From a virus (lineage: Duplodnaviria > Heunggongvirae > Uroviricota > Caudoviricetes): 64,000 bases of DNA. The notes under the pieces were generated by a model. The model was not told the origin of the DNA and searched no databases. It worked only from the letters and a program-made list of their open reading frames with translations. Every line of letters starts with the position of its first letter. Position 1 is the stretch's first letter. A program made the translations under genes and the position numbers. Where the stretch lies: the IMG/VR virus record IMGVR_UViG_3300032318_002198. The stretch is one strand, 5' to 3'. Below are positions 13,484-30,007 of the stretch, in pieces.

Positions 13484-15917
13484 GTTAAGTCAACTTGCAT
13501 TAAGTAAAGATCAAAACTTATATGAAGTATACGATGAAAAAAAGAAACAATGGGTTCCAATCGCGGGGTGTACGTATCTGGAACCCGGCCCTGGCTATGC
13601 AAGTCCTGATGATGCATTTATGCCAATTACCGCAATAGCAGTATACCTTCAGTGGCTTGACAGTTTGGTCTGCATTGCTGTTCCGCCAAAAACAGTGACA
13701 ATGGATCAAGCAAGAGAATTAGTCAAAGATTTTCCAAATACCTATTTGGTCGAAACCGAAGCAGAAATGCTTGAAATGTTTTTAGAATTAATCGAAGATG
13801 CAGATGTTTTGAGTGGATGGAACTCGGAAGGTTTTGATATTCCATATACAGTTAATCGTGTTATTAAATCATTAAGCAAAGATGATAGTCGTCGATTTTG
13901 TTTATGGAATCAGTACCCGAAAAAGAGAGAATACGAAAAGTATGGCAAAAAAGCCGTAACATATGACTTAGTCGGAAGAGTACATTTAGATAGTCTTGAA
14001 TTGTACAGAAAATATACATACGAAGAACGTCATAGTTATAGTTTAGATGCTATTGCAGAATACGAATTAGGAGAAACTAAAACTCCTTACGAAGGAACAC
14101 TCGATCAACTATATAACAATGATTTTAAAAAATTCATTGAATATAACAGACAAGACTGCGCACTTCTGAATAAATTAGATCGTAAATTAAAATTCATAGA
14201 TCTTGCTAATACTATTGCTCATGAAAATACAGTATTGTTACAAACAATCCTAGGTGCAGTTGCCGTAACCGAGCAAGCTATAATTAATGAAGCACACCAT
14301 CGTGGATTAATTGTTCCTAATAGAGTAAGCAGAGACGACCGCGGAGATACACAAGCAGCAGGTGCATATGTTGCATATCCTAAAAAAGGATTGCATGACT
14401 GGATCGGATCAATGGACATTAACAGTCTATATCCTAGTGTTATTAGAGCATTAAACATGGGTCCAGAAACTATTGTAGGACAACTTAGACCTGACCGTAC
14501 TGATGCTTATATAAAAGAACAAATGGATGCCCAAGGAAAAACATTTGCTGCGGCGTGGGAAGGTTTGTTTGGATCCTTTGAATATACTGCCGTGATGAAT
14601 CAAGATCGTGCATTTGACATTATCATTGATTGGGAAAATGGTAGTACTAGTGTATTAAGTGCCGCCGAAGTGTATAAGTTAATATTTGAAAGCAATCAAC
14701 CGTGGATGTTAAGTGCTAATGGTACTATTTTTTCACATGCCGACGAAGGAGTTATACCTGGTCTATTAAAACGTTGGTATGCGGAAAGAAAAGAACTTCA
14801 GAAAAAATTAAAACTATCGAAAGAAGCCAATAACGAAGCCGAAGAAGAATATTGGGATAAACGACAATTAGTCAAAAAGATTAACCTTAATTCACTATAT
14901 GGTGCTATTCTTAATGCCGGTTGTAGATTCTTCGATAAGAGAATAGGCCAATCAACTACATTAACAGGAAGAAGTATTGCAAGACATATGGCTGGCAAGG
15001 TTAATGAGATAATCACGGGTGAATACGATCATGTTGGAAAGAGTATTATATATGGTGATACTGATTCTGTATATTTCTCAGCATATACAACACTAAAACT
15101 TGATATTCTAAAAAAATCAATCCCATGGGATAAAGACATTGTTATTCAGTTATATAATAATGTGGCCGAAAATGTAAACAGTACATTCCCTGACTTTATG
15201 TTAGATGCATTCCATTGCCCAAAGAGTAGAGGAGAAGTAATTAAAGCTGGTAGAGAAATTGTTTCTAGCAAAGGATTATTCATTACTAAAAAACGTTATG
15301 CTGTTCTTTATTATGATAAAGATGGTAATCGTTATGATGTCGAAGAGAAATTAGGTAAGATAAAAGCCATGGGACTTGATCTTAAAAGAAGTGATACTCC
15401 TAAATTCATGCAAGAATTTTTAAATGAGGTTTTAACCCGCGTACTTCACGGTGCTGAAGATAAAGAAATTTTAGATAGAATCGTTGAATTTAGAAGTCAA
15501 TTTAAGACTAGGCCAGGTTGGGAAAAAGGAACACCTAAACGTGTTAACAATCTAACCTCTTATGGTATAAAAGAAGAAAAACAAGGTAAGGCCAATTTAC
15601 CCGGTCATGTCAGAGCCAGCATTAATTGGAATATATTAAAAAAAATGCACGGCGACAAATATAGTATGCAAATTGTCGATGGCATGAAAGTTATTGTTTG
15701 TAAACTCAAAGATAATCCCTTGGGATATACATCAGTAGCATACCCCACCGATGAATTAAGATTGCCAAATTGGTTTAAAGAACTACCATTCGATCATGCA
15801 GCAATGGAGAACGTCATTATTGATAACAAATTAGATAACTTAATTGGCGTGCTCGATTTCGATCTTCAGTCAACTATTAGTGATAATACATTTGGAAAAT
15901 TATTTTCATTTGAATGA
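13443..15917 (+). CDS. Family-B DNA polymerase, C-terminal fragment (ExoII/III and polymerase)
   Basis: GWNSEGFD, YNRQD, MDINSLYPS, KINLNSLYG, YGDTDS. Start at 13443 or 13446 inside the HNH 3' end, with an AAGGA RBS. Confidence 0.92.
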   Translation: MMETLDEKEISVFELSQLALSKDQNLYEVYDEKKKQWVPIAGCTYLEPGPGYASPDDAFMPITAIAVYLQWLDSLVCIAVPPKTVTMDQARELVKDFPNTYLVETEAEMLEMFLELIEDADVLSGWNSEGFDIPYTVNRVIKSLSKDDSRRFCLWNQYPKKREYEKYGKKAVTYDLVGRVHLDSLELYRKYTYEERHSYSLDAIAEYELGETKTPYEGTLDQLYNNDFKKFIEYNRQDCALLNKLDRKLKFIDLANTIAHENTVLLQTILGAVAVTEQAIINEAHHRGLIVPNRVSRDDRGDTQAAGAYVAYPKKGLHDWIGSMDINSLYPSVIRALNMGPETIVGQLRPDRTDAYIKEQMDAQGKTFAAAWEGLFGSFEYTAVMNQDRAFDIIIDWENGSTSVLSAAEVYKLIFESNQPWMLSANGTIFSHADEGVIPGLLKRWYAERKELQKKLKLSKEANNEAEEEYWDKRQLVKKINLNSLYGAILNAGCRFFDKRIGQSTTLTGRSIARHMAGKVNEIITGEYDHVGKSIIYGDTDSVYFSAYTTLKLDILKKSIPWDKDIVIQLYNNVAENVNSTFPDFMLDAFHCPKSRGEVIKAGREIVSSKGLFITKKRYAVLYYDKDGNRYDVEEKLGKIKAMGLDLKRSDTPKFMQEFLNEVLTRVLHGAEDKEILDRIVEFRSQFKTRPGWEKGTPKRVNNLTSYGIKEEKQGKANLPGHVRASINWNILKKMHGDKYSMQIVDGMKVIVCKLKDNPLGYTSVAYPTDELRLPNWFKELPFDHAAMENVIIDNKLDNLIGVLDFDLQSTISDNTFGKLFSFE

Positions 15918-17143: not shown

Positions 17144-19774
17144 TTAAGCCTGTGCTTCAGTCCAACTCAGTCTAGCTAATACAGACTGCGTTGAAGTTCC
17201 TATGTTAGTTACTGTTATTGTCATAACATCAGGACCATCAGGATACAGGTTCATCTGCGATGTTGGTACAGAATTTGTTGTTCCGCCGCCTAAAATACTA
17301 TTTCCAAGATCTCGAACCTCAGTCAAATCTAAAGTAGTCAAAACTTGATTAGCTCCGCTGGAGTCTGCATAAAATGCCGCAGCATTTTCCCCACCGCTAA
17401 TACTTTGCCCCGAACTATGTATTGCTACCTGAGCCAATGATGATCCTCCAGCAGAAACGAATGTACCGCCACTGGCCCTACCATTTAATCTTGCCTGAAT
17501 CAAAAATGGACCATTAGCCAACAACCCCATAGAATCTAGTTTTAATTGCATTCGATTAACAATTTCTCTAGCTCCTAACACCCCAGTAAATCCGCTGTCG
17601 ACACTGGGTGCTAATCTTATACTAATAAGAGGTTGAGTTGCTCCTGTATTTACTGATACTGCTGTAGTCATACCTTGATTAAAGATCAGGCTTTTATCCT
17701 CATCGAATCTTCCGTCCATAATAACTGAACTACCCCAGTGACTGATTGCAGCCGCAGAAGATGGCGCCGCCAATTCTACTGCTATTGGTGCAGATGCACT
17801 ATATGTAAACGTTTGTGCCGATGTCGAACCGCCAGATTGTGCTCTAGCGAATATAGTCAATGTATCACTGGTCTTGCTCGAATAGCTGATATATTCCACA
17901 CTACCATTAGCACCAGGATTAGATATTCTCACAGTTCCACTACTAGGGAACCTACTAGTATTGCTTACTGATATAGTCCCACCTGTAGTATCACTGTTGC
18001 TAAGTGTAGCCAATAGTTTAGATAGAGGTAATTCTGCTGTAGATTCGTAATGTGCAGGTAAGTTGCCCGATCTCATAAAAGATTCATATTGTTGATTGTT
18101 GTGTACGAACGAATGTACGTAGATTACACCACCGTCGAGACCCCTGAATCCGAACCTAACTGTCCCGGCACCATACCAACTATAATCCATATAAATCATT
18201 TGCATTCTTGATAGATTTATATTATATCCGCTAATTCCGGTACCATCACACGGATCATTCCATAATGATTGCGGAACTTTTGTGTCTACAGTTTTAGATA
18301 CAATGACTCCGCCCGACAAGGAGAATCCTTTGTATTCAGGAGATACCAACATTGATGTCTGACTAGTTATAGATAAAACTCTATAACTTAATCCTCGAAT
18401 TACAATATAGTCTCCTATATCAAGTTGATCTGCAAATTGAGTATTAGTTCCGGTTATTATCTGAGATCCATTAGTAACAGATACTGTTCCGGCAATTTGA
18501 TTAACACTAGATCTACGAACTGCATACAGAGTTTGACCATCAAATTCATAGAATAATCCGTTTTGTTTATCAAACATACCAACACGATTGACCGATCCGT
18601 ACCATGAAAATGGTGTCGCTCTGATAGGGAAACCCATTGCTGGGGTTACTCCGGGTGCAGACAGTGCAGTATATGTCAATACATTATCAGCAGGAATTGA
18701 TGTAATTATAAAATTCCCATTGTATTCGGCTGGGATAGCATTCTCTACTAGAATCGTAGTTCCTACTGACATTTGATGTGCAAAAGTGCAGGTTAAAGTA
18801 ACTGAGGTCCCTGTTGATGTTAACTGACTAACAGCAAGAGGAGGTTTCAGTGATGTACCTGTGGAGAATTGAATTCCTTTACCACTTTGATATCTAAAAT
18901 ATCTGCGAGTCTGTCTAATAAAAGATGCTCCTGGGGACAATGATCCGGCGGAAAAACTTACACCTCCGTCAAATCCGCGATGAATTACTGAACCAGCAGG
19001 CCTAGAATAAAGAGTAGATCCGGCACCTGCACTAGCAGTTATTGTCCCGGTTGGTGCATTAGCAACTACAAATGTAAAAGTTCTCGCAGTAGGTGTTCCT
19101 ACTACAGTCCAGGCCCCGTTAGGAGGATTTGTGGTTGCGGTTGTTCCAAAAACATAAAGTAAGTTTCCTGGATATAATCCATGCGCACCAATGGTGGTGC
19201 ACGTCACGGTAGTCGAGCTATTAGTAAAAGCTACGCCTGCTGACGCACTCACTTGAATCGAAGATCCACTGAATAAACTGCCTAAAAATACATAAGTTCT
19301 AGTTGGATCAAATTTTGAACCAGCACTTACTATTGCGTCTGCTGTATAAGTAAACGAAACACCTGCTGATACAGTATCGACATAAAACCAACCATTGGCA
19401 TTATAGTCCAAACTGTCCTGAATTAATACAATAGAACCAACTGCCGGTGGACTGGTTGTTGTAACAGTAACCGTTCTGGTACCGGCACCGGTAATATTAG
19501 TTATAGTTATTGTAGAAGTTGGATCATAAAAAGCGGTAGGTCTATTATTAGCTAATGACAATTGTTCCCATTTAGTTGGCTGTAATCCATACTCGAAGTC
19601 GGTGTCAATTAATGACTGAGGAGCACTAACTCGTAGCTTGTTAACTGGATCATGCGCAGAGGAATTCATTGCCATAGAGACATTGGTTCTAACAGCAGGT
19701 TTACCATTAACATCATACTCCATCGAATGGTGCAGATTTTTTAAATTAGAATCGTTAGGATGTGTATAAGCCAT
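17144..19774 (-). CDS. Ser/Thr/Gly-rich virion structural protein (tail fibre/adhesin-like)
   Basis: 876 aa with three ~50-aa repeats of the type TVTCT..H.L..G..I.V....NG.F.V....FTY; own late promoter. Confidence 0.7.
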   Translation of the reverse strand: MAYTHPNDSNLKNLHHSMEYDVNGKPAVRTNVSMAMNSSAHDPVNKLRVSAPQSLIDTDFEYGLQPTKWEQLSLANNRPTAFYDPTSTITITNITGAGTRTVTVTTTSPPAVGSIVLIQDSLDYNANGWFYVDTVSAGVSFTYTADAIVSAGSKFDPTRTYVFLGSLFSGSSIQVSASAGVAFTNSSTTVTCTTIGAHGLYPGNLLYVFGTTATTNPPNGAWTVVGTPTARTFTFVVANAPTGTITASAGAGSTLYSRPAGSVIHRGFDGGVSFSAGSLSPGASFIRQTRRYFRYQSGKGIQFSTGTSLKPPLAVSQLTSTGTSVTLTCTFAHQMSVGTTILVENAIPAEYNGNFIITSIPADNVLTYTALSAPGVTPAMGFPIRATPFSWYGSVNRVGMFDKQNGLFYEFDGQTLYAVRRSSVNQIAGTVSVTNGSQIITGTNTQFADQLDIGDYIVIRGLSYRVLSITSQTSMLVSPEYKGFSLSGGVIVSKTVDTKVPQSLWNDPCDGTGISGYNINLSRMQMIYMDYSWYGAGTVRFGFRGLDGGVIYVHSFVHNNQQYESFMRSGNLPAHYESTAELPLSKLLATLSNSDTTGGTISVSNTSRFPSSGTVRISNPGANGSVEYISYSSKTSDTLTIFARAQSGGSTSAQTFTYSASAPIAVELAAPSSAAAISHWGSSVIMDGRFDEDKSLIFNQGMTTAVSVNTGATQPLISIRLAPSVDSGFTGVLGAREIVNRMQLKLDSMGLLANGPFLIQARLNGRASGGTFVSAGGSSLAQVAIHSSGQSISGGENAAAFYADSSGANQVLTTLDLTEVRDLGNSILGGGTTNSVPTSQMNLYPDGPDVMTITVTNIGTSTQSVLARLSWTEAQA

Positions 19775-19836: not shown

Positions 19837-19865
19837 TTGACAGAAAGCTAAATTAAGTGTAAAAT
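19837..19865 (+). promoter_or_regulatory. sigma70-type promoter for the dpdA-like operon
   Basis: TTGACA, 17 nt, TAAAAT; a second TTGACT-18-TACGAT lies at 19871-19900. Confidence 0.7.
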
Positions 19866-20028
19866 TACATTTGACTTGTTTTTTCCAAGCTAGTTACGAT
19901 AACATATTGATATTCGTAAATTTCTTGATCGTAAAGTAATACAGGACTTGCAAAAAGAAAAAATAAGTGCTACTCTTAGAGATAAAAAGATACCGGAGTC
20001 AAGAAAAAATTATGGAAACAAAAACAAA

Positions 20029-21579
20029 ATGAAAAATAATCCACCAGTTAATTTAACACCCTTACAGAAAGATTATTCTGTATTTTTACCAGCCATCAGC
20101 GGATTCTATAGCACCTATGTAAGTAAACAACAAGCCGGAGAATATGTTCCTAAAAATCGTATCCCTGCCGATTTCGACAGGGGTATCGAAGGGATGAATT
20201 TCTTAAATCCTGAACAAGGATATTTTACTTACAAATATGGTCTGTTTTCTGCAGGGCATGCTCAATTGGACATACAAAAAAGTATTACTCAAGAATCCAT
20301 GATTCAAGGACGAGATCGTACTAAGACAATGATCTTAGGAGATTCTGGCGGTTATCAAATTGGAAAAGGAATTCTTAAGTTTGATTGGGCAGATTTTGAA
20401 GGTCCTAAAGCCAGCAAGGTTCGTCAACAAATCTTAGAATGGTTAGAATTAACTGCCGATTGGTCAATGATGCTTGACGTTCCTACTTGGGCATGCGATC
20501 GTGTTCATAGTCCTAAAACAGGGCTTAAGACTTTTGAAGATTGTTTGGAAAAAACTAAATTCAATAATAACTATTTTTTAACTAACAGATTAGGACAAAC
20601 AAAATTCCTAAATGTTTTACAAGGCAGCGACTGGGAGACTGCTGAAAAATGGTATCAAGGAGTAAAAGAATTCAGCGATCCTGCCGTATGGGGAGATAAA
20701 GCCGCAGAAGGGTGGGCATTTGGTGGTGCAAATATGTGCCGCATGGATGTTACATTAAAGCGATTAATGACATTGCGTGAAGATGGTTTATTAGCAAATA
20801 AAAACTGGATTCACTTCTTGGGTACTGCTCAATTAGACTGGGCATGTTTTTTAACTTCAATTCAACGTCAAATCAGGAGACATATAAATGAAGAAATTAG
20901 CATATCTTTTGACTGCGCCTCGCCATTTATCGCAACAGCAAATGGGCTCGTCTACACAAACGCACAACACCTTACGAAACGTTGGGCGGTTATTATGGAC
21001 AAAGCACCAGATAACAAATCACTCGCAAAGTCAGACATTCCATTCCCATTCGAATCAGAAGTTGGACGTAGACTTGTAATGGGAGATATATGCCATTACG
21101 CTCCTGGCATGTTGAATAAAATTGGAAAAGAAGGAAAAACCAGTTGGGATAGTTTTAGTTACGCACTAATGATGGGCCATAACGTATATTGTCATATCGT
21201 GGCTGTACAACGTGCTAATCATTTAGCAGACATCGAATATGCTAGATTTAAACCAGACTGGCGTCAATGGATTAAAATGAATTCTAAAACTGTTACTAGC
21301 GATGAATTAAGCGATTGGGTTCCACGTAATGTATTATATTTCAATACATTTATTCAAGAATTGTTTGAAACAAAAACTAAAGCAGAAGCATTTAAATTAA
21401 TTGAGCAAGTAAAACCTTTCTTACAAAACTTAGAAGGTGCAAGATCCAAAGGATGGCCTGCACAAAATCAATTCGGCTCGTTATTCTCCGTCGAGGAAAT
21501 AACTAAATCTGAAGAAATCGATATGGAAAATCCTGAAGATCCTGCTTTGAGAAAACTTGAAGGATCTATGGATGAATAA
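20029..21579 (+). CDS. TGT/DpdA-like guanine transglycosylase
   Basis: TGT catalytic motifs in order: GDSGGYQ, MMLDVP, NVLQG, WAFGG, IHFLG, SFDCASP. Start placed at ATG 20029 (frame is open from 19903). Confidence 0.78.
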   Translation: MKNNPPVNLTPLQKDYSVFLPAISGFYSTYVSKQQAGEYVPKNRIPADFDRGIEGMNFLNPEQGYFTYKYGLFSAGHAQLDIQKSITQESMIQGRDRTKTMILGDSGGYQIGKGILKFDWADFEGPKASKVRQQILEWLELTADWSMMLDVPTWACDRVHSPKTGLKTFEDCLEKTKFNNNYFLTNRLGQTKFLNVLQGSDWETAEKWYQGVKEFSDPAVWGDKAAEGWAFGGANMCRMDVTLKRLMTLREDGLLANKNWIHFLGTAQLDWACFLTSIQRQIRRHINEEISISFDCASPFIATANGLVYTNAQHLTKRWAVIMDKAPDNKSLAKSDIPFPFESEVGRRLVMGDICHYAPGMLNKIGKEGKTSWDSFSYALMMGHNVYCHIVAVQRANHLADIEYARFKPDWRQWIKMNSKTVTSDELSDWVPRNVLYFNTFIQELFETKTKAEAFKLIEQVKPFLQNLEGARSKGWPAQNQFGSLFSVEEITKSEEIDMENPEDPALRKLEGSMDE

Positions 21580-22459
21580 TGCACTAGTAATAGGGCTCGG
21601 AATGGGTCAACAATATCGTATTTGGTTGTCGGAACTAAATTACAATGTTAAAACAGTTGATCCTGATCCTACCAAGAATGCCGATTATTCGTCAGTTGAT
21701 CAAGCATTGGCCGAAGATAATTTTTATAACTTGATCTATATCGGAACTCCTAATTGGACTCACGAACCTATTGCTAGACAAGTAGCAGATAAAACAAAAC
21801 TATTGTTGATCGAAAAACCCGGAGTTCTAAATAGTAAATCATGGCAACAATTGATAAATGATTATCCTTCTACAAGAATCATGATGGTTAAAAATAATCA
21901 ATATCGACCAGAAATTGAAAAATTTAAAACATTGTCTGCTACAAGCGAACGAATCTATGTTAGATGGAACAATCGAAATAGAATCCCTCATCCTGGAAGT
22001 TGGTTTACTACAAAATCAAAATCTTTCGGAGGTGTTAGTAGAGATTTAATTCCTCATATGTTAAGTTATTATTGTGCATTAACAGATTACACACAAGGAA
22101 CTAAAATTAAAAGTCACGCAACTCAAAATTATAATCTCGAAAATATTCTCGATACTGATTATGGCACTGTTAATCTCAACGGTATATATGATGTCGATGA
22201 TTTTTGTCACATTGAATTTCAAAACGGGAATACTACTTGGATTCTGAGTGCCAATTGGAAAACTAATTTAGATCATAACGATAGTAGCATTTCATTTAAT
22301 ACAACAAATTCTCCTATAAGATACGAGCTAGGACTTTGTCCCGGTGAAGCATATAAACATATGATTCAATCTGCAACAGAAAATTTAAACAACGATACAT
22401 TTTGGCAAGAACAACTTGCACAGGATATTTGGATTCACGAACAAATTGAACACTTATGA
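21572..22459 (+). CDS. Gfo/Idh/MocA-family NAD(P) oxidoreductase
   Basis: VIGLGMG Rossmann loop, IGTP..TH, IEKP, GG...DL..H. Confidence 0.85.
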   Translation: MNNALVIGLGMGQQYRIWLSELNYNVKTVDPDPTKNADYSSVDQALAEDNFYNLIYIGTPNWTHEPIARQVADKTKLLLIEKPGVLNSKSWQQLINDYPSTRIMMVKNNQYRPEIEKFKTLSATSERIYVRWNNRNRIPHPGSWFTTKSKSFGGVSRDLIPHMLSYYCALTDYTQGTKIKSHATQNYNLENILDTDYGTVNLNGIYDVDDFCHIEFQNGNTTWILSANWKTNLDHNDSSISFNTTNSPIRYELGLCPGEAYKHMIQSATENLNNDTFWQEQLAQDIWIHEQIEHL

Positions 22460-23349
22460 ATAAAGTATTAGTTACTAAAAGCAATGGCAGTTTTTACGAA
22501 ACTGATTATGATTTACCCGACTGCGATGAAGATGGTATACAAGTCCGTGCTATCATGACTGGCATTTGTCGCAGTGATATAGATATGATGCAAGGTAATT
22601 TTGGCCCATTGCCGTTAAACATGCAAGGCCATGAAGGATTGGCTCAAGTAGAAAAAATAGGAAAATATGTCGAAGATGTCAAAATCGGAGATTTTGTCGC
22701 TACTAGGGGTGAACCAGCATATGCCGACAGATATACTGTAAGAGCTAAGGAATATGTTAAAGTACCGGAAGCACATCCTAGATATATTCTAGAACCTGTG
22801 GCTTGTGGCATTAATGTTATACAACAACCTATTAGAGAAATAGCCGAACGTTCAGGACCTGGACGTAGATTATTAATAATGGGTAGTGGCTTTTTAGCTT
22901 GGGTTGCTTACAACACTAGTTTAATCAATCATTTAGATTTTGAATATACTGTGATTGGTTCAAGTAATCAAGAACTATGGGGTCCACGATTAAGTACTGA
23001 TTATAGCGGCAAATTTGACGTTGTTATTGATCTAAGCAGTAGAACTGATGTTTTTACTAAAGACATTATGAACAACGAGGGGTTGGTTGTGTTCGGCAGT
23101 CAGAAAATGATTACTACAGATTTTAGTCAATTACTTTGGAAAGCATGCACTATGGTATTTCCAAGTCCTAGAACTGATAAATTTTATCAATGTATGAAAG
23201 ATGCCGAATCATGGATCACCCACGGAGATTTGCAAGTTGACAATTTTTGGACTAGAGGGTATAATAGAACCATGGAATGGGAACAAGCGTTCTCGGATGG
23301 CAATAATCGATTAGCAAATTACAGCAGAGGATATCTCAAATGGGATTGA
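22456..23349 (+). CDS. Zinc-dependent (MDR) alcohol/polyol dehydrogenase
   Basis: GICRSD, GHEG, V.IGDFV, LEPVACG, GSGFLA. Confidence 0.85.
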   Translation: MNKVLVTKSNGSFYETDYDLPDCDEDGIQVRAIMTGICRSDIDMMQGNFGPLPLNMQGHEGLAQVEKIGKYVEDVKIGDFVATRGEPAYADRYTVRAKEYVKVPEAHPRYILEPVACGINVIQQPIREIAERSGPGRRLLIMGSGFLAWVAYNTSLINHLDFEYTVIGSSNQELWGPRLSTDYSGKFDVVIDLSSRTDVFTKDIMNNEGLVVFGSQKMITTDFSQLLWKACTMVFPSPRTDKFYQCMKDAESWITHGDLQVDNFWTRGYNRTMEWEQAFSDGNNRLANYSRGYLKWD

Positions 23350-23867
23350 ATACACAAGAGCGAAAAAACGTGGTTTACTTTACTGGATACGAAGTAGAAC
23401 ATACTGTCTGTCACGGGATGCGAACACTTTTTGTAGCAGGAACTCCACCGTTCGAAGAGATTCTGAACCAACTAAAAAAACCCGGACACGAAGATATTCA
23501 ACATGTTTACTTTGGAACTAGTCAAAGTTTCAACCCTAAAAATATATCTCAAGAAGAATATAAATCTTGGGATGAAGTAATTTTCGGTTGTTTGAAGGAA
23601 AATTATTGGGTAACTTTAGATTTTGATGTACATCACGTTGAAGGTGTATTGGAATCTGGATATTGCGAACATAACAGATTTGTGCCTATGATCAGTGTCA
23701 AGTTGCCTTATATTAATCAACTAAATTATAATGCTACACTTAAATTGGATGATTTGACTTGGGGTAAAACCAATCCTGGAGTATGGACGCATCATTTGCA
23801 ATCGTTGATGTCAACTAAAAACTATACTCATTGGGATCAATATACCCAAGATGCCGAAATTAATTAA
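23340..23867 (+). CDS. Hypothetical protein of the modification cluster
   Basis: 175-aa alpha/beta ORF translationally coupled to the dehydrogenase. Confidence 0.8.
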   Translation: MGLNTQERKNVVYFTGYEVEHTVCHGMRTLFVAGTPPFEEILNQLKKPGHEDIQHVYFGTSQSFNPKNISQEEYKSWDEVIFGCLKENYWVTLDFDVHHVEGVLESGYCEHNRFVPMISVKLPYINQLNYNATLKLDDLTWGKTNPGVWTHHLQSLMSTKNYTHWDQYTQDAEIN

Positions 23868-24121
23868 GATCTGCTGCCCGGATAGTATTTGTTCGGGCCT
23901 CCAAATTTTTCGCTTTTAATGAGACGACCTCTTTGGCTCTTACCGCTACCTTTGACACCTTGTTTACCAGTACCATCGGTATGATCACTATCATGTCTGA
24001 GCCAACCGCGAGCAACACATTGAGAATAACGGACATTACTCAATTTAGCACGACCCGGAGAGCATTGACTCTTTTTGGGTGCTGATAACTTCTTTTCGGA
24101 AATTAATTCGGATATTTTCAT
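23864..24121 (-). CDS. Small basic late protein with CTS-like N-terminus
   Basis: Start placed at ATG 24121 (MKISELISE), 5 nt after a GATAAATA box; its stop overlaps the convergent gene. Confidence 0.7.
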   Translation of the reverse strand: MKISELISEKKLSAPKKSQCSPGRAKLSNVRYSQCVARGWLRHDSDHTDGTGKQGVKGSGKSQRGRLIKSEKFGGPNKYYPGSRS

Positions 24122-24126
24122 AAAAT

Positions 24127-24134
24127 TATTTATC
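24127..24134 (-). promoter_or_regulatory. T4-type late promoter (GATAAATA), probably leaderless transcript
   Basis: Box, then ATTTT, then ATG. Confidence 0.6.
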
Positions 24135-24159
24135 ATTTTGAGAAGATAAATTAAAGACA

Positions 24160-24188
24160 TTGACATAAAATCATAAATTATGTATCAT
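24160..24188 (+). promoter_or_regulatory. sigma70-type promoter for the queD-like operon
   Basis: TTGACA, 17 nt, TATCAT. Confidence 0.75.
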
Positions 24189-24195
24189 AGTATGA

Positions 24196-24579
24196 ATGAA
24201 AGAAGCAAATATGACCACAAAAACATATATTAAAATACGTACAGATTTCGAAGGATATCATTATTATCCTAACGCTGGATCCATTGATCCGCGTATCAGT
24301 TTCCTCGAAAATGAACATCGTCATATGTTCAAGGTCGAAGTGAAAATCTCTGTCTCCCATCTTGACAGAGAGTTAGAATTCTTCTTAGTCAAATGGGCTT
24401 TGAATGAATTCATCCAGGACGGTAACATGAATCACAAAAGTTGTGAAATGATATGTACCGATATTCTTAACCTTCACTTGATTCCTCGTTATGGGGCTAA
24501 TCGTTATTACGAAATCGTCGTTTCGGAAGATGGCGAATCTGATGGTATCGTAGAACACTCACCAACTTTAACAGTTTAA
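24196..24579 (+). CDS. QueD/PTPS-like T-fold enzyme
   Basis: FEGYHYYP...EHRHMF (Zn His pair), RELEF, SCEMI; alternative start at 24211. Confidence 0.65.
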   Translation: MKEANMTTKTYIKIRTDFEGYHYYPNAGSIDPRISFLENEHRHMFKVEVKISVSHLDRELEFFLVKWALNEFIQDGNMNHKSCEMICTDILNLHLIPRYGANRYYEIVVSEDGESDGIVEHSPTLTV

Positions 24580-24596
24580 CTCATAGGAAATTTATC

Positions 24597-24812
24597 ATGG
24601 CTAATCATCCTAACTATATTCAAAAAACCCTTGTTATGAAACCCGAAGTTACTAAAATCTTCGATGACTTGGAAGCATGGTTAGATTATTGTAGATTTAA
24701 TCTAATCGAATATAATCCCAAGCATCTTTACAAGAGTAAAGAATATAAAGAATGGCAACGAGAAAAAGCCAAGGCTGCTAGACACAGCAGAAACGATCAA
24801 CCAATTCACTAA
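24597..24812 (+). CDS. Hypothetical protein
   Basis: AGGA RBS; 71 aa. Confidence 0.7.
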   Translation: MANHPNYIQKTLVMKPEVTKIFDDLEAWLDYCRFNLIEYNPKHLYKSKEYKEWQREKAKAARHSRNDQPIH

Positions 24813-24814
24813 AC

Positions 24815-25888
24815 ATGAGTAATGTATTTGTTGTAGATCTCGAAAGCGTGGAAACACGCTATACGAAACAATGGAAAACTCATGTTCCTGAACTTCTTAA
24901 AAAGGTTGGACACAATGTTCAAGTTATTGACGGCCCTACGGATATCCCAGCTGCTACTACCCCAGGGGCCTTTCTTAATTTTGGCGGGACTAATATTTAC
25001 AAGTCTGCTCAAGTTGAAAAGATTGGCAGAATGTTTTGCGATGGACGCATTTCTAATGGCGACCACTTTCTTTTTACTGATGCTTGGCATCCGGGGATTA
25101 TCAACTTAAAGTACATGAGCGAGCTTCTTGGCATGCCTGTTAAGATCCACGCTCTTTTTCACAGTGGCAGCTATGATCCTGCCGATTTCCTTGGTAGGTT
25201 GATTGGACCTGCACCATGGGTTAGACATGCGGAAAAAAGTTTTTACCACGCCATTGATCATAACTATTTTGCTACGGACTTTCATATTCAAATGTTTGGT
25301 AAAAACTTGTTAGGTTGGCCGCAAGAAATGCGATCTGCCAATTATCGAGCGCATAACATTATTCGAACAGGTTGGCCTATGGAATATATGGAGCAAACAC
25401 TGACTCCGTATAAAAATACCGCCAAAAGAGATTTGATCCTGTTCCCTCATCGTATTGCTCCAGAAAAACAAGTTGAGATCTTTAGAGATATTGCTACGCA
25501 TTTGCCTCAATATGAATTTGTTGTTTGTCAGGATCAACAGTTGACCAAACACGAATATCATACCTTACTAGGACAATCGAAGATTGTGTTTAGCTGTAGT
25601 CTACAAGAAACACTAGGAATTGGCTGCTACGAAGGTGCGTTAGTAGATGCTATCCCAATGGTTCCTGACCGACTATCATACAAAGAGATGTATTACGAAG
25701 GATTCAAATATCCTAGCGAATGGACTGAATCTTGGGAAAAGTATGAAACATACCGGCAGCATGTTTGTCATAACATCATTACTACAATGGAACATTATGA
25801 CAAACGAGTATCATATGTACGTAAACAGGCTCAGGATTTGACTAATCGATTCTTTAGCTGCGATAAACTTTTAGAAAATTTAGTGTAA
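24815..25888 (+). CDS. GT-B (GT4-like) glycosyltransferase
   Basis: LFPHRIAPEKQ, then S.SLQETLGIGCYEG (E-x7-E) and PDRLSYKEM. Confidence 0.85.
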   Translation: MSNVFVVDLESVETRYTKQWKTHVPELLKKVGHNVQVIDGPTDIPAATTPGAFLNFGGTNIYKSAQVEKIGRMFCDGRISNGDHFLFTDAWHPGIINLKYMSELLGMPVKIHALFHSGSYDPADFLGRLIGPAPWVRHAEKSFYHAIDHNYFATDFHIQMFGKNLLGWPQEMRSANYRAHNIIRTGWPMEYMEQTLTPYKNTAKRDLILFPHRIAPEKQVEIFRDIATHLPQYEFVVCQDQQLTKHEYHTLLGQSKIVFSCSLQETLGIGCYEGALVDAIPMVPDRLSYKEMYYEGFKYPSEWTESWEKYETYRQHVCHNIITTMEHYDKRVSYVRKQAQDLTNRFFSCDKLLENLV

Positions 25889-25897
25889 AATAGAAGT

Positions 25898-26368
25898 ATG
25901 TTTTTACTAACCTTACTTAAGAAATTAGGTCGCCATAGAATTATTATGGATAGACAGAATAATGAACCTTATTTAGAAAGATATTACGTTTTTCTAAAAG
26001 ATCGAAAACATTTTCCATTCAATATTTTCATCCATAAATTTTTAAAGTCCGATCCGGACGATGTGCATGATCATCCTTGGCCTTATGCCACTCTAATACT
26101 CAAAGGCGGGTATTACGAATGGGTTCCAAATTTCAATAGCAACGGTATCAAAATCGGTGAGACATGTCATTGGCGTGGTCCTGGTCATTTTAGGTTCTGT
26201 AGTGCTACTAGTTATCACCGAATTGAACTTAAACCTGGCGTAGATTGTTGGACAATGTTTATGCCCGGCCCTCAAAAAAGAGAATGGGGCTTTTTGGTTT
26301 CAAACAATGGAAAAGACAACTGGATTCATAATGACATGTATCTAGAAAATAAAGCAAAGAATAATTAA
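25898..26368 (+). CDS. Cupin-fold metalloprotein
   Basis: VHDHPW...ILKGGYYE...YHRIEL cupin metal ligands. Confidence 0.75.
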   Translation: MFLLTLLKKLGRHRIIMDRQNNEPYLERYYVFLKDRKHFPFNIFIHKFLKSDPDDVHDHPWPYATLILKGGYYEWVPNFNSNGIKIGETCHWRGPGHFRFCSATSYHRIELKPGVDCWTMFMPGPQKREWGFLVSNNGKDNWIHNDMYLENKAKNN

Positions 26369-26373
26369 GAATT

Positions 26374-26766
26374 ATGAATTTACACAACCAACTACCTCAG
26401 TTAGATGAACTAGAAGAACTAGATACTATAAATGTTCCATGGACTAATCCGGTTAGCCAAGATATACATGTTGTTGTTTATAGAGACGGATTTCCTGTAA
26501 CACCAGGGCATTTGTTATTTGTACCTAGATATAATACACCCGAGGTATTGCAAGATGCCTTCTATGATGCGTATAATAAAGGTATGGCAATGATGGCTAA
26601 CGGCGAATGCGACGGCTTTAACATCGGGCTGAATATCGGAACAGCAGCAGGTCAAACTGTTATGTATCCTCATATTCACCTCATACCGAGATATAAAGGT
26701 GATGTTGAGGATCCAACTGGCGGCATTCGAAATGTTATACCCGGAAAAGGAAATTATAGGAAATAA
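26374..26766 (+). CDS. HIT-family nucleotide hydrolase
   Basis: FPVTPGHLLFVP, GFNIGLNIG.AAGQTVMYPHIHLIPR (first His of the triad replaced by Tyr). Confidence 0.9.
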   Translation: MNLHNQLPQLDELEELDTINVPWTNPVSQDIHVVVYRDGFPVTPGHLLFVPRYNTPEVLQDAFYDAYNKGMAMMANGECDGFNIGLNIGTAAGQTVMYPHIHLIPRYKGDVEDPTGGIRNVIPGKGNYRK

Positions 26767-26772
26767 TTGTTT

Positions 26773-26810
26773 CCTTCGCCTTGAACTAAATATAGTGTAC
26801 AAGGTGAGGG
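26773..26810 (+). promoter_or_regulatory. RBS-sequestering hairpin with late promoter (ACTAAATA) in its loop
   Basis: CCTTCGCCTTG pairs with CAAGGTGAGGG (11 bp including 2 G-U); the right arm is the SD of the HNH gene. Confidence 0.75.
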
Positions 26811-26815
26811 TCAAA

Positions 26816-28141
26816 ATGAATAAGCACTACAAAAATCGATACGATAAATTTATTCACTATTTAAAAAATAACACAAATAGAACTATTCAAGGTTATACCG
26901 AAATACATCATATTCAGCCTAGATGTCTCAAAGGATCAAATTTACCTAGCAATTTAATTGAATTATCATTAAGAGAACACTTTTTAGCACATTGGTTATT
27001 ATGGAAAGCATATCCAAACTATTTGCCTTTGGCTAGTGCGTTCTTACAAATGAACCACAAAAATCCAAAACTAAAAGAATTTCAGGGAAGAATTTCAAGC
27101 CGTACATACGAAAAATTAAAAACTGAAACCTATAAAATGATCGGTGAACTTAATACCGACAAGGTCAATGTTCGCGACGCCAATGGACAAAAATTAAGAA
27201 TTTCTAAAGAAGATTATAAAAATAGCAATTATAAATTTCATACAACAGGTAAAATTTATGTATTAGACACATTTAGTGATAAATGGGTATATATAGAATC
27301 AAAAGAATATCAAGAAAATAAAGATAGATATAAGAGTAGAATGAGCCTAGAGGGATTTCCAAGACCAGGCAATCCGAGTCCTATAGGAAATAGTAATGCT
27401 GCTATAGACGTTAACTTTTGTAAATATCATTTTTTAGACCAAGAATCTCAAGAAATATTTAAAATTACTAAAACTCAAGCAAGAGAACGTAATAAAGAAT
27501 ATGGATATAAAAGACTAAAACAACTCCAAAAGAAAAAAGTTAAATGTATTGACGATCTAGGTAATATTGTTTATATATCTTTAAATGACTATGATCCAAA
27601 TATTCACAACCATTACTCTAAAAATACCGTTAATGTTTTCGATCTAGAACACCAATGTCAAACAATTATTTCCTGTGAAGAATATTATCTAAATAAGAAT
27701 AGGTATTTGACATCGACTAAAGGAAAGGTATTGGCCAAGGACCTCTTAGGTAATCAATTTTTGATTAAACAAGATGAATTTAAATCCGGTGGATATGTGG
27801 GACAAACAAAAGGATTGAGAACCGTACTAAACAAAGAAACCGGTATATATCAACAGATAGATCAAGACGAATATCAAAAAAATAAAGAAAAATATATCGG
27901 ACCAAATCAAGGTAAAGTTAATGTCATAAACAAATTTACAGGAGAAAGAAAACAAATACCTAAATCTGATTTTGATAAAGACATCTATTGTGGTTTGGGT
28001 AATAAAAAATATTTGTTCTTATGCAGAAATAAGTTGACATTAAAAGAAAAATATATTAATATATACGAATGGAATTTAGTCAAAGACCAATATGAAATCA
28101 TAGATCAAAATAAATTCAAAACCATTTTAGATTTTATCTAA
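26816..28141 (+). mobile_element. Free-standing HNH homing endonuclease with a repeat-rich C-terminus
   Basis: EIHHIQPRCLKGSNLPSNLIELSLREHFLAH; start placed at ATG 26816. Confidence 0.85.
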
Positions 28142-28169
28142 AAACAAATTAACTTAAAAAGGAAAAATT

Positions 28170-29055
28170 ATGCTATCCAAGATCAAGATCTCGGAATTTT
28201 TTTTTTTTTTTTTTTAGTATTCAAGGAGAAGGTAGATACATGGGGGTTCCAAGTATCTTTTTAAGAACCTTTGGTTGTAATTTTCGTTGTAAAAACTTCG
28301 GAAGATATGAAAAAGATATTCTAGGAATCGAACAAACATACAACCCAGAAGTTGTTCAAATTATTAATAATTTAGATCAATATAAGTCGTATAATGATTT
28401 ACCACTAGTTAGTACCGGTTGTGACTCGTACGCCGCGGTTTATTCAGAATTTAAAAATCTTTCTCCAATGTACGATAGTGACACATTAGCTAAATCAATC
28501 ATCGAGCTCCTTCCACACAAAGAATGGAAAGAAGAACATCTTGTAATTACCGGAGGTGAACCATTGCTAGGTTGGCAACGTGCATATCCTGCATTGTTGG
28601 ATCATCCTAAAATGATTTCTCTAAAAGAACTAACGTTTGAAACAAATGGTACACAAAAAATAACTCCGGAATTTAGTGATTATTTGTATCACTGGGGTAT
28701 TGAAACTCGCGGTTGGGGAGCATTAACATTCAGTGTTAGTGCCAAATTAAGTGTCAGCGGAGAAAAGAGAGAAGAAGCAATCCTTCCGGAAGTAATTTGC
28801 CAATATGAACAATTAGGATATACTTATTTAAAATTTGTTGTTGCAACAGACGAAGATGCTAACGAAGCATTGGAAGTTACTCAATTATATCGAAATGCCG
28901 GTTTTAAAGGTCCTGTATACCTAATGCCAGTAGGTGGTGTTGAAAATGTGTATAAGTTAAATAACCGTCGTGTCGCCGAACTTGCAATGAAACATGGTTT
29001 AAGATACAGCGATAGACTTCAAGTTCCGCTTTTCAAGAACGCTTGGGGAACATAA
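28170..29055 (+). CDS. queE: QueE-like radical SAM 7-carboxy-7-deazaguanine synthase, frameshifted at a poly-T tract as assembled
   Basis: ATG 28170 (AAGGA RBS) reads MLSKIKISE, then T19, then SIQGEGRYMGVPSIFLRTFGCNFRC...GCDS, ITGGEP and ETNGT in the +1 frame. Confidence 0.85.
28197..28215 (+). repeat. T19 homopolymer
   Basis: 19 consecutive T; the longest homopolymer noticed in the window. Confidence 0.95.
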
Positions 29056-29056
29056 G

Positions 29057-30007
29057 TTGAGAATCGTTTTTAATTTAATGAATCATTTTAATCCCATGTC
29101 AGGGGGATTAAACGTTGTCATAAATGCTATGCATCACTTGAAGGAAGAAAACTTCGAAGTATGCATATATTACTATGCATACGAACAACAAGAATCTATA
29201 CACCTTGGACTCGAAAAAAATTTTAAGAGATTAACATTAGATGAATTGAATCCGTTTACTGACATTGTAGTTGTTGCTGAAGAATTTATTTGGATAGCTC
29301 ACGATTTCTTAAAACCAAGAGGAATCAAATATATAATCTTTAACCAAGGAATATCTGCTTGCCTATATTCCCATAATCCATACTCTGAACATAAAACAAC
29401 CTATCATGAGGCAACTAGCATTCTTGTAAATTCATTACATACTGCTCGTGGCGTGGAAAAGTTATTTGATGTTCCTGCTAACAAAATCTTTATGCATAGA
29501 ATGGGCATCGATCCATCTATGTATTATCCAGAACCTAAAGAATATATTGCATCGTGTTTAGCATATAAAAACGGAAACTTTGTTAGGTTTATAGAACATT
29601 ATTTCAAAGACAAGTATCCGGATTGGCGTTTTGAAGTCATTAATTTATTGCCTAGACACGAAACTGCTGCAATATTTAGAAAATCAAAATTATTCTTGGC
29701 ATTTGGCGGGCCTGAAGGATTTGGCCTACCTCCACTAGAGGCAGCATTGTGTGGTTGTAAAGTAATAGGATTTACCGGAGGGGGTGGGGAAGAATATTTC
29801 AAATCTCCTATATTTACTGCTGTAAATTTCATGGATCATATTGATTTTGTGGAGAAATTAGATACTGTTATAAAAACAATAAATGTATCTTATTTAGAAG
29901 ATCAAGAATATATAACATATTTGCGAAATCACTATAGTAAAGAACAATCAAAAGACAGTATTGTAAGATTTTTTTCGTACATAAAAGAAAACTTTTTTAA
30001 TATATAA
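29057..30007 (+). CDS. Second GT-B (GT4-like) glycosyltransferase
   Basis: PMSGGLNV N-terminal loop; GPEGFGLPPLEAALCG (E-x7-E); TTG start 1 nt after the queE stop. Confidence 0.85.
   Translation: MRIVFNLMNHFNPMSGGLNVVINAMHHLKEENFEVCIYYYAYEQQESIHLGLEKNFKRLTLDELNPFTDIVVVAEEFIWIAHDFLKPRGIKYIIFNQGISACLYSHNPYSEHKTTYHEATSILVNSLHTARGVEKLFDVPANKIFMHRMGIDPSMYYPEPKEYIASCLAYKNGNFVRFIEHYFKDKYPDWRFEVINLLPRHETAAIFRKSKLFLAFGGPEGFGLPPLEAALCGCKVIGFTGGGGEEYFKSPIFTAVNFMDHIDFVEKLDTVIKTINVSYLEDQEYITYLRNHYSKEQSKDSIVRFFSYIKENFFNI

Follow-up and report, generated by a model that had tools for sequence, protein, structure and literature searches.

The window analysed here is a stretch of 64,000 nucleotides from an uncultured giant phage that is related to Pseudomonas phage PA5oct. 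Its positions 19837 to 30007 carry the following features.

19837..19865, plus strand: promoter-like site TTGACA-17-TAAAAT (11/12 matches) in the gap preceding the DpdA-like gene
20029..21579, plus strand: divergent TGT-fold, DpdA-like transglycosylase of 516 aa (ATG at 20029; the ORF opens at TTG 19948)
21572..22459, plus strand: accessory Gfo/Idh/MocA-type oxidoreductase (PF01408, E 2e-6; IGLGMG and EKP motifs)
22456..23349, plus strand: accessory medium-chain Zn-dehydrogenase (ADH_N, E 2e-9; ligand motifs GICRSD and GHEG, C..GHE)
23340..23867, plus strand: conserved 175-aa protein (38/38 related loci)
24160..24188, plus strand: promoter-like site TTGACA-17-TATCAT (11/12 matches) upstream of the DpdL-like gene
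24196..24579, plus strand: DpdL homolog, a T-fold protein and proposed 7-carboxy-7-deazaguanine decarboxylase (LxxxHRHxF signature)
24597..24812, plus strand: conserved 71-aa ORF (38/38 related loci, in every case flanked by DpdL and the glycosyltransferase)
24815..25888, plus strand: core GT-B (GT4-like) glycosyltransferase, GT no. 1 (PF00534 matches in orthologs; EX7E motif)
25898..26368, plus strand: cupin-like metalloprotein (phrog_4786, E 5e-37; HxH..E..H pattern)
26374..26766, plus strand: HIT-family nucleotide hydrolase or transferase (PF01230, E 7e-10)
26699..28141, plus strand: homing endonuclease ORF of 480 aa (phrog_655, E 6e-33; phrog_12434 HNH)
28170..29055, plus strand: queE, 7-carboxy-7-deazaguanine synthase (phrog_2076, E 1e-38), with its reading frame disrupted by a T19 run (28197-28215)
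29057..30007, plus strand: accessory second GT4-type glycosyltransferase, GT no. 2 (PF00534, E 7e-7; phrog_2170; EX7E motif)

An earlier note, made from the sequence alone, had described ten of these ORFs, and all are present on the plus strand where it placed them; the homing endonuclease was missing from its list and has been added as a correction. The tight packing it described was also found, as genes within each block overlap or are separated by at most 17 nt. A small minus-strand ORF (23864-24166) lies between the two blocks. The two proposed sigma70 promoters occupy the only two intergenic gaps, but their frequency is not above chance: region-wide, 45 promoter-like sites were observed and 45.8 were expected from shuffles. 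The two promoters are thus consistent with the reading given below and are no evidence for it.

The evidence supports a 7-deazaguanine module centred on a genuine TGT-fold transglycosylase. The motifs DSGGYQ, MLD, LQG and FDC are all intact in its translation, as had been claimed, and its profile aligns DSGGYQ, LD and QG with the Z. mobilis TGT. Across 56 relatives D105, S106, G108 and D295 never vary, and conservation of D150 is 90% or more. An unrelated fold had been raised as a possibility, and the AF2 model (pLDDT 91) instead matches solved TGTs (Foldseek E 3e-7; VIA Z 17-18 over residues 13-440). The enzyme shares the fold, the catalytic aspartates and the linkage to 7-deazaguanine synthesis genes with bDpdA and DpdA1-4. 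It differs from them in giving no TGT match in a Pfam search, in lacking the CxCxxC zinc motif, in its C-terminal part, which is long and helical, and in its disordered tail. The tail peptide QNQFGSLFSVEE (21466-21486) resembles the C-terminus of the polymerase, which ends in DNTFGKLFSFE. In a tblastn search the protein matched no phage known to carry DpdA1-4; its relation to the DpdA-type proteins of phages ACP17, BUCT-ZZ01 and phiST is a distant one. A canonical TGT was not found in the records of five relatives. The large, divergent family to which the protein belongs (>900 clusters at 50% identity), which occurs in PA5oct-like jumbo phages, looks like a separate subfamily. One member, in Vibrio phage 2.275.O, lies inside a preQ0/preQ1-type cluster with QueF, queuosine genes and FolE.

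The T-fold protein, previously described as QueD-like, was reassigned as a DpdL homolog. Its stretch FLENEHRHMF fits the DpdL signature LxxxHRHxF (PMC10516641) and the QueD cysteine is absent; tblastn matched it to phiST CGPG_00067 (32%), ACP17 (41%) and BUCT-ZZ01 (60%). DpdL is the proposed decarboxylase of phage phiST, for which expression attempts failed (PMC10516641). With a DpdL-type enzyme in place of QueD, the window alone cannot make the base, contrary to the earlier proposal. Neither FolE nor QueD was found in the window. A search extended to the genomes of relatives, the complete PA5oct genome included, recovered FolE and PTPS genes but no QueC; FolE is located within the module in 13 related loci. 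The identity of QueE was borne out by its phrog match and by comparison with solved QueEs (E 3e-4, the SIQGEG stretch aligning best). The listed start at 28240 was rejected, since that ORF lacks the SIQGEG motif and the true ATG lies at 28170; from there the product begins MLSKIKISE and resembles the relatives' MSKIKVSELFYSIQGEG. The frame is not intact.

Conservation was assessed by gene-order counts in the 38 related contigs whose flanks were long enough. The 80 related loci represent one lineage, so their synteny is partly inheritance. The order DpdA-like enzyme, 175-aa protein, DpdL, 71-aa ORF, GT-B is invariant (38/38), and queE is found in 36/38. The 175-aa protein, the "unknown protein" of the note, has hmmsearch homologs in contig L087 (E 2e-61) and phage ACP17 (E 3e-26); its AF2 model (pLDDT 83) gave no convincing match to any structure (best Z 6.9). 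The cupin-like gene, present in 30/38 loci, encodes invariant H57-D58-H59, E74 and H107; its assignment as a cupin stands on this pattern and on its phrog match but found no Pfam or PDB match. The HIT gene, correctly named before, is present in 13/38 loci and in contig L087 follows a GHMP kinase and a sugar-phosphate nucleotidyltransferase. In relatives queE comes directly after the HIT gene, and in the window the homing endonuclease is inserted between them.

GT no. 1 is, judged from motifs and homologs, a GT-B glycosyltransferase, in agreement with the earlier call. The protein itself gave no Pfam match and its profile no match in the PDB; PF00534 is matched by 11/30 orthologs (best 2e-7), the EX7E motif is present with E273 invariant, and the Atlas score to GT1-family clusters is 1.00. 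Its gene adjoins DpdL in PA5oct, Phosso, ACP17, X1/BUDD, BCSR5 and BUCT-ZZ01. Of the 23 isolate-phage records that encode the GT-B, 18 have DpdL within 3 kb, and these 18 come from six lineages. These observations support the view that this glycosyltransferase is conserved and belongs to the module as an integral component. The expected co-occurrence of both glycosyltransferases and the oxidoreductases with the DpdA-like gene holds for GT no. 1 only. The Gfo, Zn-dehydrogenase and GT no. 2 genes were correctly identified by domain and motif, but the first two occur in 1/38 loci (and in the near-identical contigs L088 and L089) and GT no. 2 has no homolog in the 80 related loci. GT no. 2 and GT no. 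1 are not paralogs (hhalign probability 3%). The three genes are exchangeable accessories that carry out no core steps. In relatives their slots hold other sugar-nucleotide genes: UDP-glucose dehydrogenase in 9 loci, an epimerase/dehydratase in 3, extra glycosyltransferases in some, and a GHMP kinase with an NTP-transferase in L087.

The folds, motifs, gene order and co-occurrence are observed; from them we infer the sugar, DNA as the target and each of the chemical steps. FolE and QueD, both encoded in relatives outside the region matching the window, would produce CPH4, which QueE would convert to 7-carboxy-7-deazaguanine. The DpdL homolog would then remove the carboxyl group. The divergent TGT-fold enzyme may swap guanine in phage DNA for the deazapurine; the polymerase-like peptide in its disordered tail makes the replication fork the probable place. 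The conserved GT-B, always beside DpdL, would most likely attach a sugar, either to the base or to DNA that carries the modification; which sugar, which atom and which of the two substrates can likewise be proposed only by inference. In the source phage the Gfo/Zn-dehydrogenase pair and GT no. 2 would tailor or extend this sugar. A DpdL-type 7-deazaguanine DNA module is quite likely; the addition of a sugar on top of it is a more tentative proposal, at slightly below even odds. As a whole, a QueC-less, DpdL-type DNA-modification module of a PA5oct-like jumbo phage, with a GT-B adding a sugar, is the best explanation (probability about 0.5). Since a sugar-transferring enzyme always accompanies the deazaguanine gene set, a purine carrying a sugar may be present in the phage DNA. 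The literature searched describes no 7-deazaguanine in DNA that bears a sugar, in line with the earlier note, which knew of none.

A rather less probable explanation is that only an unglycosylated deazapurine (dDG or dCDG) enters the DNA. The sugar enzymes would then serve other ends (glycans of the virion or host surface, for example, or a nucleotide-sugar decoy) and would be located here because the region tolerates insertions. Phage phiST has DpdL without a glycosyltransferase and makes plain dDG, and hardly any relative shares Gfo, ADH or GT no. 2 with the source phage. The variable slots also carry protease, redoxin, homing endonuclease and MazG genes, which marks them as insertion hot spots. 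GT no. 1, however, lies outside these slots and beside DpdL in all 38 loci, keeps this position in six isolate lineages of differing genome architecture, and has no counterpart in the preQ-type cluster of Vibrio phage 2.275.O.

It is also conceivable, if unlikely, that the pathway is off or phase-variable in the source phage, because the long T tract frameshifts queE. The window has a tract of 19 T and the independent contig L090 one of 20 T, neither in frame; the tract would have to be 18 or 21 long, or slip, for the proposed pathway to run. In each of the 29 relatives checked the sequence at this position resembles TTATTTTAT, with T runs of at most 4. The conserved SIQGEG motif lies within the part cut off. 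On the other hand, such long homopolymers are often miscounted in sequencing or assembly, and neither the remainder of queE nor any neighbouring gene is disrupted. Where a T run is long, transcriptional slippage can moreover bring part of the mRNA back in frame.

Glycosylation or ribosylation of the deazapurine as a free compound (compare toyocamycin, tubercidin and huimycin) appears quite improbable. Its product would act as an inhibitor or be incorporated ahead of replication, with the TGT-like enzyme acting in salvage. HuiG does glycosylate the free 7-deazaguanine base in huimycin synthesis (PMC7439116). Relatives' modules contain a phosphoribosyltransferase (10 loci), an IMPDH/GMP-reductase-family gene (6 loci) and MazG (23/38), and in BUCT-ZZ01 a xanthine-guanine phosphoribosyltransferase adjoins queE. 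The window has none of these genes, though, the TGT-like enzyme is universal with its catalytic residues kept, and the described secondary-metabolite clusters lack transglycosylases.

DNA is the likelier target than tRNA, as had been favoured before. The module lies among replication genes in the window, PA5oct, Phosso and ACP17. PA5oct virion DNA has been shown to resist restriction at G-containing sites, and defence nucleases against modified-G phages also hit PA5oct, whose modified G was reported with its chemical identity not given (preprint, PMC12191111). Phage TGT-superfamily enzymes beside queE and folE have been DNA enzymes in all studied cases (PMC10516641). Modification of host or phage tRNA, suggested by the closest solved folds all being tRNA-guanine transglycosylases, is highly improbable given this setting, the polymerase-like tail peptide, the missing zinc site and a window without tRNA genes.

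Two phage systems are among those closest to the proposed sugar-adding DNA module. PA5oct carries a syntenic module (EST35_0316 to 0322, same order, upstream of the FEN/RNaseH gene), with identities of 42% for the DpdA-like enzyme, 43% for GT-B, 30% for DpdL and 29% for QueE. About 55 kb separate this module from the phage's FolE gene and two PTPS genes. In contrast to the window, the PA5oct module stretch has no detectable homologs of the 175-aa protein, Gfo, ADH or GT no. 2. The dDG system of Cellulophaga phage phiST comprises FolE, QueD, QueE, MazG, DpdL and DpdA3 (Cui, Hutinet et al., NAR 2023, PMC10516641). This pathway and that of the source phage are QueC-less, lie near the polymerase gene and pair queE and a DpdL bearing LxxxHRHxF with a remote TGT-superfamily transglycosylase. 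The two transglycosylases differ twofold in length (516 aa in the source phage, 259 aa in phiST) and are only marginally alignable (hhalign probability 70%). The source phage adds the fixed GT-B, the 175-aa protein, the 71-aa ORF, cupin, HIT and sugar-tailoring genes, all lacking in phiST, whose DNA carries plain dDG.

Glycosylated bases have precedents elsewhere. In T-even phages GT-B DNA glycosyltransferases produce glucosyl- and arabinosyl-hydroxymethylcytosine, and the sugar genes vary among related phages. The logic of modifying a base and then transferring a sugar from a nucleotide sugar is similar. There is no sequence relation, and the T-even base is a pyrimidine with a hydroxymethyl handle, whereas the base here is a purine analogue, 7-deazaguanine, whose C7 to our knowledge offers no obvious hydroxyl or amine handle, which counts against the sugar step. 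In eukaryotic tRNA, mannosyl- and galactosyl-queuosine are made by QTMAN and QTGAL. The QTMAN N-terminal domain model PF12038 matched neither the window's glycosyltransferase nor five related phage records. Like HuiG, these enzymes act on a 7-deazaguanine derivative, their substrates being the free base or tRNA queuosine instead of DNA.

The locus at 19837-30007 is likely to be a deazaguanine DNA-modification module, and whether its product also bears a sugar is a question close to evenly balanced, tipping slightly toward no. The fuller reading developed here, given a probability of about 0.4, is that in these phages C7 is freed by DpdL, the deazaguanine in DNA is decorated with a sugar by a conserved GT-B glycosyltransferase, and the sugar varies by lineage through exchangeable genes. 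All of the ORFs listed in the earlier note lie on the plus strand between 19837 and 30007. The genes of the region are as follows.

17144-19774, minus strand: virion-structural-type gene, 876 aa (phrog_5838, E 8e-230), directly upstream of the DpdA-like gene
20029-21579, plus strand: DpdA-like transglycosylase, 516 aa, starting at the ATG at 20029
21572-22459, plus strand: Gfo/Idh/MocA oxidoreductase (Gfo)
22456-23349, plus strand: Zn-dehydrogenase
23340-23867, plus strand: 175-aa unknown protein
23864-24166, minus strand: small ORF of 100 aa between the two plus-strand blocks, without family match; the gene is also called in the near-identical contigs L088 and L089
24196-24579, plus strand: T-fold gene (DpdL)
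24597-24812, plus strand: 71-aa ORF
24815-25888, plus strand: glycosyltransferase (GT) no. 1
25898-26368, plus strand: cupin
26374-26766, plus strand: HIT protein
26699-28141, plus strand: homing-endonuclease ORF, 480 aa (phrog_655, with HNH family matches too), between the HIT gene and queE and overlapping the HIT end
28170, plus strand: ATG of queE
29057-30007, plus strand: GT no. 2

The window comes from an uncultured jumbo phage. Its G+C content is 31-39%, it holds no tRNA genes, and an identical transglycosylase is also present on contigs of 231 and 332 kb. No phage record matched the locus in a megablast search. Among cultured phages the closest, at 42% identity, are the Pseudomonas jumbo phage PA5oct and its kin; PA5oct has the DpdA-like, GT, T-fold and QueE genes in a syntenic block upstream of the FEN/RNaseH gene. 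A 149-aa ORF after GT no. 2 was rejected as a module member, since its PHROG match is a virion protein and it accompanies the FEN gene. The two gene blocks had been described as driven by sigma70-type promoters. The best two sites (19837-19865 and 24160-24188) do occupy the only two intergenic gaps, but the total of 45 sites in the region equals the shuffle expectation, and the promoter-like sites are therefore compatible with the reading and not evidence for it.

Pfam, NCBIfam and PHROG searches of the 516-aa transglycosylase gave no match. The TGT family model PF01702 matched neither the window protein nor any protein in five related records, and it matched 3 of 56 relatives, weakly (best E 0.0045). 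A single-sequence PDB search returned chance matches only, and a profile of 56 diverse members returned almost only the Z. mobilis TGT, at a weak E of about 0.3 and with an alignment spanning DSGGYQ, LD and QG. The AF2 model of the protein (pLDDT 91) had only TGTs as its top Foldseek matches (E 3e-7), and VIA aligned about 305 positions within residues 13-440 to the bacterial and archaeal TGTs 2ash, 1p0e and 1iq8 (Z 17-18, rmsd 4.6 Å). The TGT-type ORF of the earlier note thus stands: the protein models as a (beta/alpha)8 TGT fold, and its DSGGYQ and LD motifs are aligned to TGT motifs by the profile. D105, S106, G108 and D295 are invariant in the 56 relatives, and D150 is kept in at least 90% of them. 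The motifs of D105, D150 and D295 appear to correspond to the catalytic D102, D156 and D280 of Z. mobilis TGT, FDC being equated with the D280 motif by motif resemblance and invariance rather than by a printed alignment. No CxCxxC of the CxCxxC...H zinc site occurs in the translation, and the family consensus has one semi-conserved Cys in that region.

This family is very large: near relatives sharing 75-80% identity number more than 6,000, and grouping at 50% identity gives 901 clusters. Against DpdA3 of phage phiST (CGPG_00065), hhalign gave the family a probability of 70% (E 4e-5) over 84 columns; against a 416-aa protein of cyanophage BUCT-ZZ01 the probability was 93% over 167 columns, and hmmsearch matched a 424-aa DpdA-type protein of phage ACP17 at E 1e-8. 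Judged from these alignments, kinship to the DpdA-type proteins of phiST, ACP17 and BUCT-ZZ01 is probably distant and does not amount to DpdA3 membership. We read the transglycosylase as a separate, divergent DpdA-like subfamily. A member in Vibrio phage 2.275.O (30% identical) adjoins QueF, a queuosine-precursor transporter, a QueC-like gene, an amidotransferase, FolE and QueE, and this neighbourhood ties the family to deazaguanine synthesis in two branches of the pathway. A "deazaguanine synthesis/incorporation system" has already been counted in PA5oct (Iyer et al., PMC7824862).

The T-fold enzyme had been labeled QueD-like, and this label has to be replaced: both its signature and tblastn identify it as DpdL. 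The DpdL signature LxxxHRHxF has been set against the CxxxHGH of QueD (Cui, Hutinet et al., PMC10516641). The window protein reads FLENEHRHMF, which fits the DpdL signature and can be compared with FLSLNHRHLF in phiST and CKFLHGYG in QueD. In a database-wide tblastn, its match in phiST (32% identity, E 2e-9) falls on CGPG_00067, and the search returns exactly the DpdL-defining phages, namely phiST, phi13:1, phi19:2 and ACP17. A single-sequence PDB search with this protein gave chance matches only. Five related records (PA5oct, BUCT-ZZ01 and three IMG/VR contigs of 143-230 kb) have true PTPS/QueD and FolE genes at other places, and QueC and a canonical TGT are absent from the same five. Within the 64-kb window tblastn finds neither FolE nor QueD, in agreement with the observation that FolE was not visible there. 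Since the T-fold enzyme is DpdL and relatives carry FolE and QueD without QueC, the pathway is of the QueC-less, CDG-to-DG type. In phiST such a pathway yields 2'-deoxy-7-deazaguanosine, and the decarboxylase activity of DpdL (CDG to DG) is a proposal in the literature too (PMC10516641). In Vibrio phage Bakedbeans (L098, 7242-8393) the DpdL-like match lies in the C-terminal third of an annotated 383-aa protein, where DpdL is possibly fused with a further domain.

GT no. 1 is predicted to be a glycosyltransferase of the GT-B fold and GT4 family. Pfam gave no match for the window protein, and 11 of 30 orthologs match PF00534 (Glycos_transf_1, best 2e-7). The EX7E motif reads QETLGISCYEG, with E273 invariant, and the Atlas feature score of GT no. 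1 to GT1-family clusters is 1.00. Against the PDB, the single-sequence search gave chance matches only and the family profile gave none. Membership in QTMAN/GTDC1 was rejected, as a search with PF12038 up to E 1 matched neither the window GT nor its 29 orthologs, and PF12038 had no match in five related phage records. GT no. 2 was likewise rejected as a paralog of GT no. 1.

The strongest argument for a role of GT no. 1 in this pathway comes from its distribution. Among 50,697 phage records, the GT no. 1 family occurs in 23, DpdL in 29, and both in 18, with the genes at most 3 kb apart. The 18 joint records comprise the PA5oct group, Phosso (47% identity), ACP17 (34%), Xanthomonas phages X1 and BUDD, Burkholderia phage BCSR5 and BUCT-ZZ01. 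These phages differ in architecture, and in Phosso the DpdA-like gene lies 170 kb from DpdL and the GT. Neither phiST, which makes plain dDG, nor the preQ-type cluster in phage 2.275.O has the GT no. 1 family. Because the GT travels with DpdL across lineages and is missing from the preQ-type cluster, it is tentatively placed in the DG branch.

Conservation around the transglycosylase was surveyed in 80 IMG/VR loci carrying a transglycosylase at 70-79% identity to that of the window. Core counts are limited to the 38 of these with at least 4.5 kb downstream of the transglycosylase gene.

Genes of the module in related loci
175-aa unknown, DpdL, 71-aa ORF and a GT-B, order kept: 38 of 38 loci
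queE: 36 of 38
Cupin: 30 of 38
HIT: 13 of 38
Gfo and Zn-dehydrogenase: 1 of 38, plus the near-identical contigs L088 and L089
GT no. 2: 0 of 38
Gap gene, MazG: 23 loci
Gap gene, radical-SAM on the minus strand (300 aa, e.g., L004:11719-12618), between cupin or HIT and queE, not in the window: 16 loci
Gap gene, FolE, within the module: 13 loci
Gap gene, phosphoribosyltransferase: 10 loci
Gap gene, UDP-glucose dehydrogenase: 9 loci
Gap gene, IMPDH/GMP-reductase family: 6 loci
Gap gene, NAD-dependent epimerase/dehydratase: 3 loci
Other gap genes: extra glycosyltransferases, and unrelated genes such as subtilase and redoxin

In 35 loci the GT-B is of the GT no. 1 type, and the remaining 3 have a related type of 399 aa. 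The proposal that glycosyltransferases and oxidoreductases co-occur with dpdA therefore survives for the GT-B, found in every locus counted, but not for Gfo and the Zn-dehydrogenase or for GT no. 2. Gaps between core genes differ by up to 5 kb among related loci, and in L087, a 41% identical relative, the order is GT, GHMP sugar kinase, sugar-phosphate nucleotidyltransferase, HIT. Together, the L087 order and the gap-gene survey indicate that the glycosyltransferase is fixed and that nucleotide-sugar genes vary around it. Gfo, the Zn-dehydrogenase and GT no. 2 are the window phage's own form of this variable set; by tblastn, the phosphoribosyltransferase, UDP-glucose dehydrogenase and other accessory genes of relatives are absent from the 64-kb window. 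The phosphoribosyltransferase, IMPDH/GMP-reductase-family gene and MazG occur inside the module (e.g., L074:16443-16985, L016:7269-8291 and L039:9935-10219). By analogy, these three genes recall the toyocamycin/tubercidin type of pathway, in which deazapurines are handled as nucleotides, and hint at a nucleotide-pool route in some phages.

The AF2 model of the conserved 175-aa protein (pLDDT 83) found no convincing match with Foldseek or in a wide structural search, the best Z of 6.9 being shared by STAS domains and half barrels of the QueE kind. An Atlas hint of a half-GT domain (score at most 0.88) serves as a lead only. PDB profile searches returned nothing for this protein or for the cupin. 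A 177-aa "glycosylase" upstream of DpdL in Phosso was rejected as its homolog (hhalign probability 0.4%).

The earlier note allowed tRNA as an alternative target to DNA. The module sits among replication genes in the window, PA5oct, Phosso and ACP17. PA5oct DNA has been reported to behave as G-modified, with the base not named, and the phage is restricted by nucleases that act on modified-G phages (PMC12191111). In the window the DNA polymerase ends in DNTFGKLFSFE (15885-15905), 3 residues before the stop, and a similar peptide, QNQFGSLFSVEE, lies in the disordered tail of the transglycosylase (pLDDT <50; 21466-21486). Among 80 relatives the tail motif fits a strict pattern in 23 and a looser one in 48, and all 12 of the misses printed show a variant form. 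T4-type polymerases bind the clamp via their C-terminus. The likeness of the two peptides suggests that the transglycosylase may dock on the sliding clamp via its tail.

From the observed folds, motifs, gene order and co-occurrence, we infer the following pathway. FolE, QueD and QueE would make CDG, DpdL would take off its carboxyl group, and the DpdA-like enzyme would exchange G in DNA for the product. The GT-B would then attach a sugar, and accessory enzymes would modify the donor sugar or lengthen it. As part of the same tentative reading, tailoring by lineage would be carried out by Gfo, the Zn-dehydrogenase and the second GT here, and elsewhere by a UDP-glucose dehydrogenase, by an epimerase, or by a kinase paired with a nucleotidyltransferase. 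The C7 of 7-deazaguanine offers no handle, and in huimycin, whose glycosyltransferase is HuiG, the sugar sits at N2. Speculatively, the sugar could form a C-glycosidic bond with C7, which is electron-rich, could be attached once the cupin has carried out an oxidation, or could be placed at N2.

Modification of DNA with 7-deazaguanines is a known counter-defence of phages. To our knowledge, all of the DNA 7-deazaguanines described carry small substituents, and glycosylation of DNA is known on pyrimidines only. In line with the earlier note, a full-text literature search found no sugar-bearing 7-deazaguanine in DNA (exact phrases gave zero hits; most subscription journals lay outside its scope, and the absence is not proof). 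If correct, a deazapurine with a sugar would be a DNA base of a new chemical class and, as far as the search reached, the first sugar-bearing purine in natural DNA. It would bear on evasion of restriction and defence nucleases, on new DNA-labelling enzymes, and on sequencing artefacts in the jumbo phages with this module, which are very abundant in freshwater and the sea. The sugar reading is directly testable, since PA5oct, ACP17, Phosso, BUCT-ZZ01, X1/BUDD and BCSR5 are cultured and the presence of a modified G in PA5oct DNA is known.

QueE was confirmed as a family (phrog_2076, E 1e-38), but the ORF start listed for it (28240) is internal and the frame is broken as assembled. Matches to the solved structures 6nhl and 4njg have E 3e-4 to 5e-4, with FSIQGEG...GC as the best-aligned part, and NCBIfam QueE models match below their cut-offs only. 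The ATG at 28170 yields MLSKIKISE, which resembles MSKIKVSELFYSIQGEG of relatives. A T19 run at 28197-28215 then stands in place of the usual TTATTTTAT and shifts the frame relative to this ATG; FSIQGEG...GC lies beyond the tract, cut off from the queE start. The tract is T20 in L090, an independent Logan contig from the same phage, and in 29 of 29 relatives examined T runs at this position are at most 4.

In L088 and L089, whose DpdA-like gene is 99% identical, the slot upstream of that gene holds DNA polymerase B, a 244-aa ORF and a 121-aa ORF on the same strand, as in PA5oct. The different upstream gene in the window points to a local rearrangement. In relatives queE directly follows the HIT gene or the cupin, whereas in the window the endonuclease lies between. 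A queE intron carrying this endonuclease was rejected, because the queE N-terminus is at 28170, just upstream of the T tract, and not before the endonuclease. Comparable endonuclease genes occur at other positions in the related loci L032, L034, L060 and L074.
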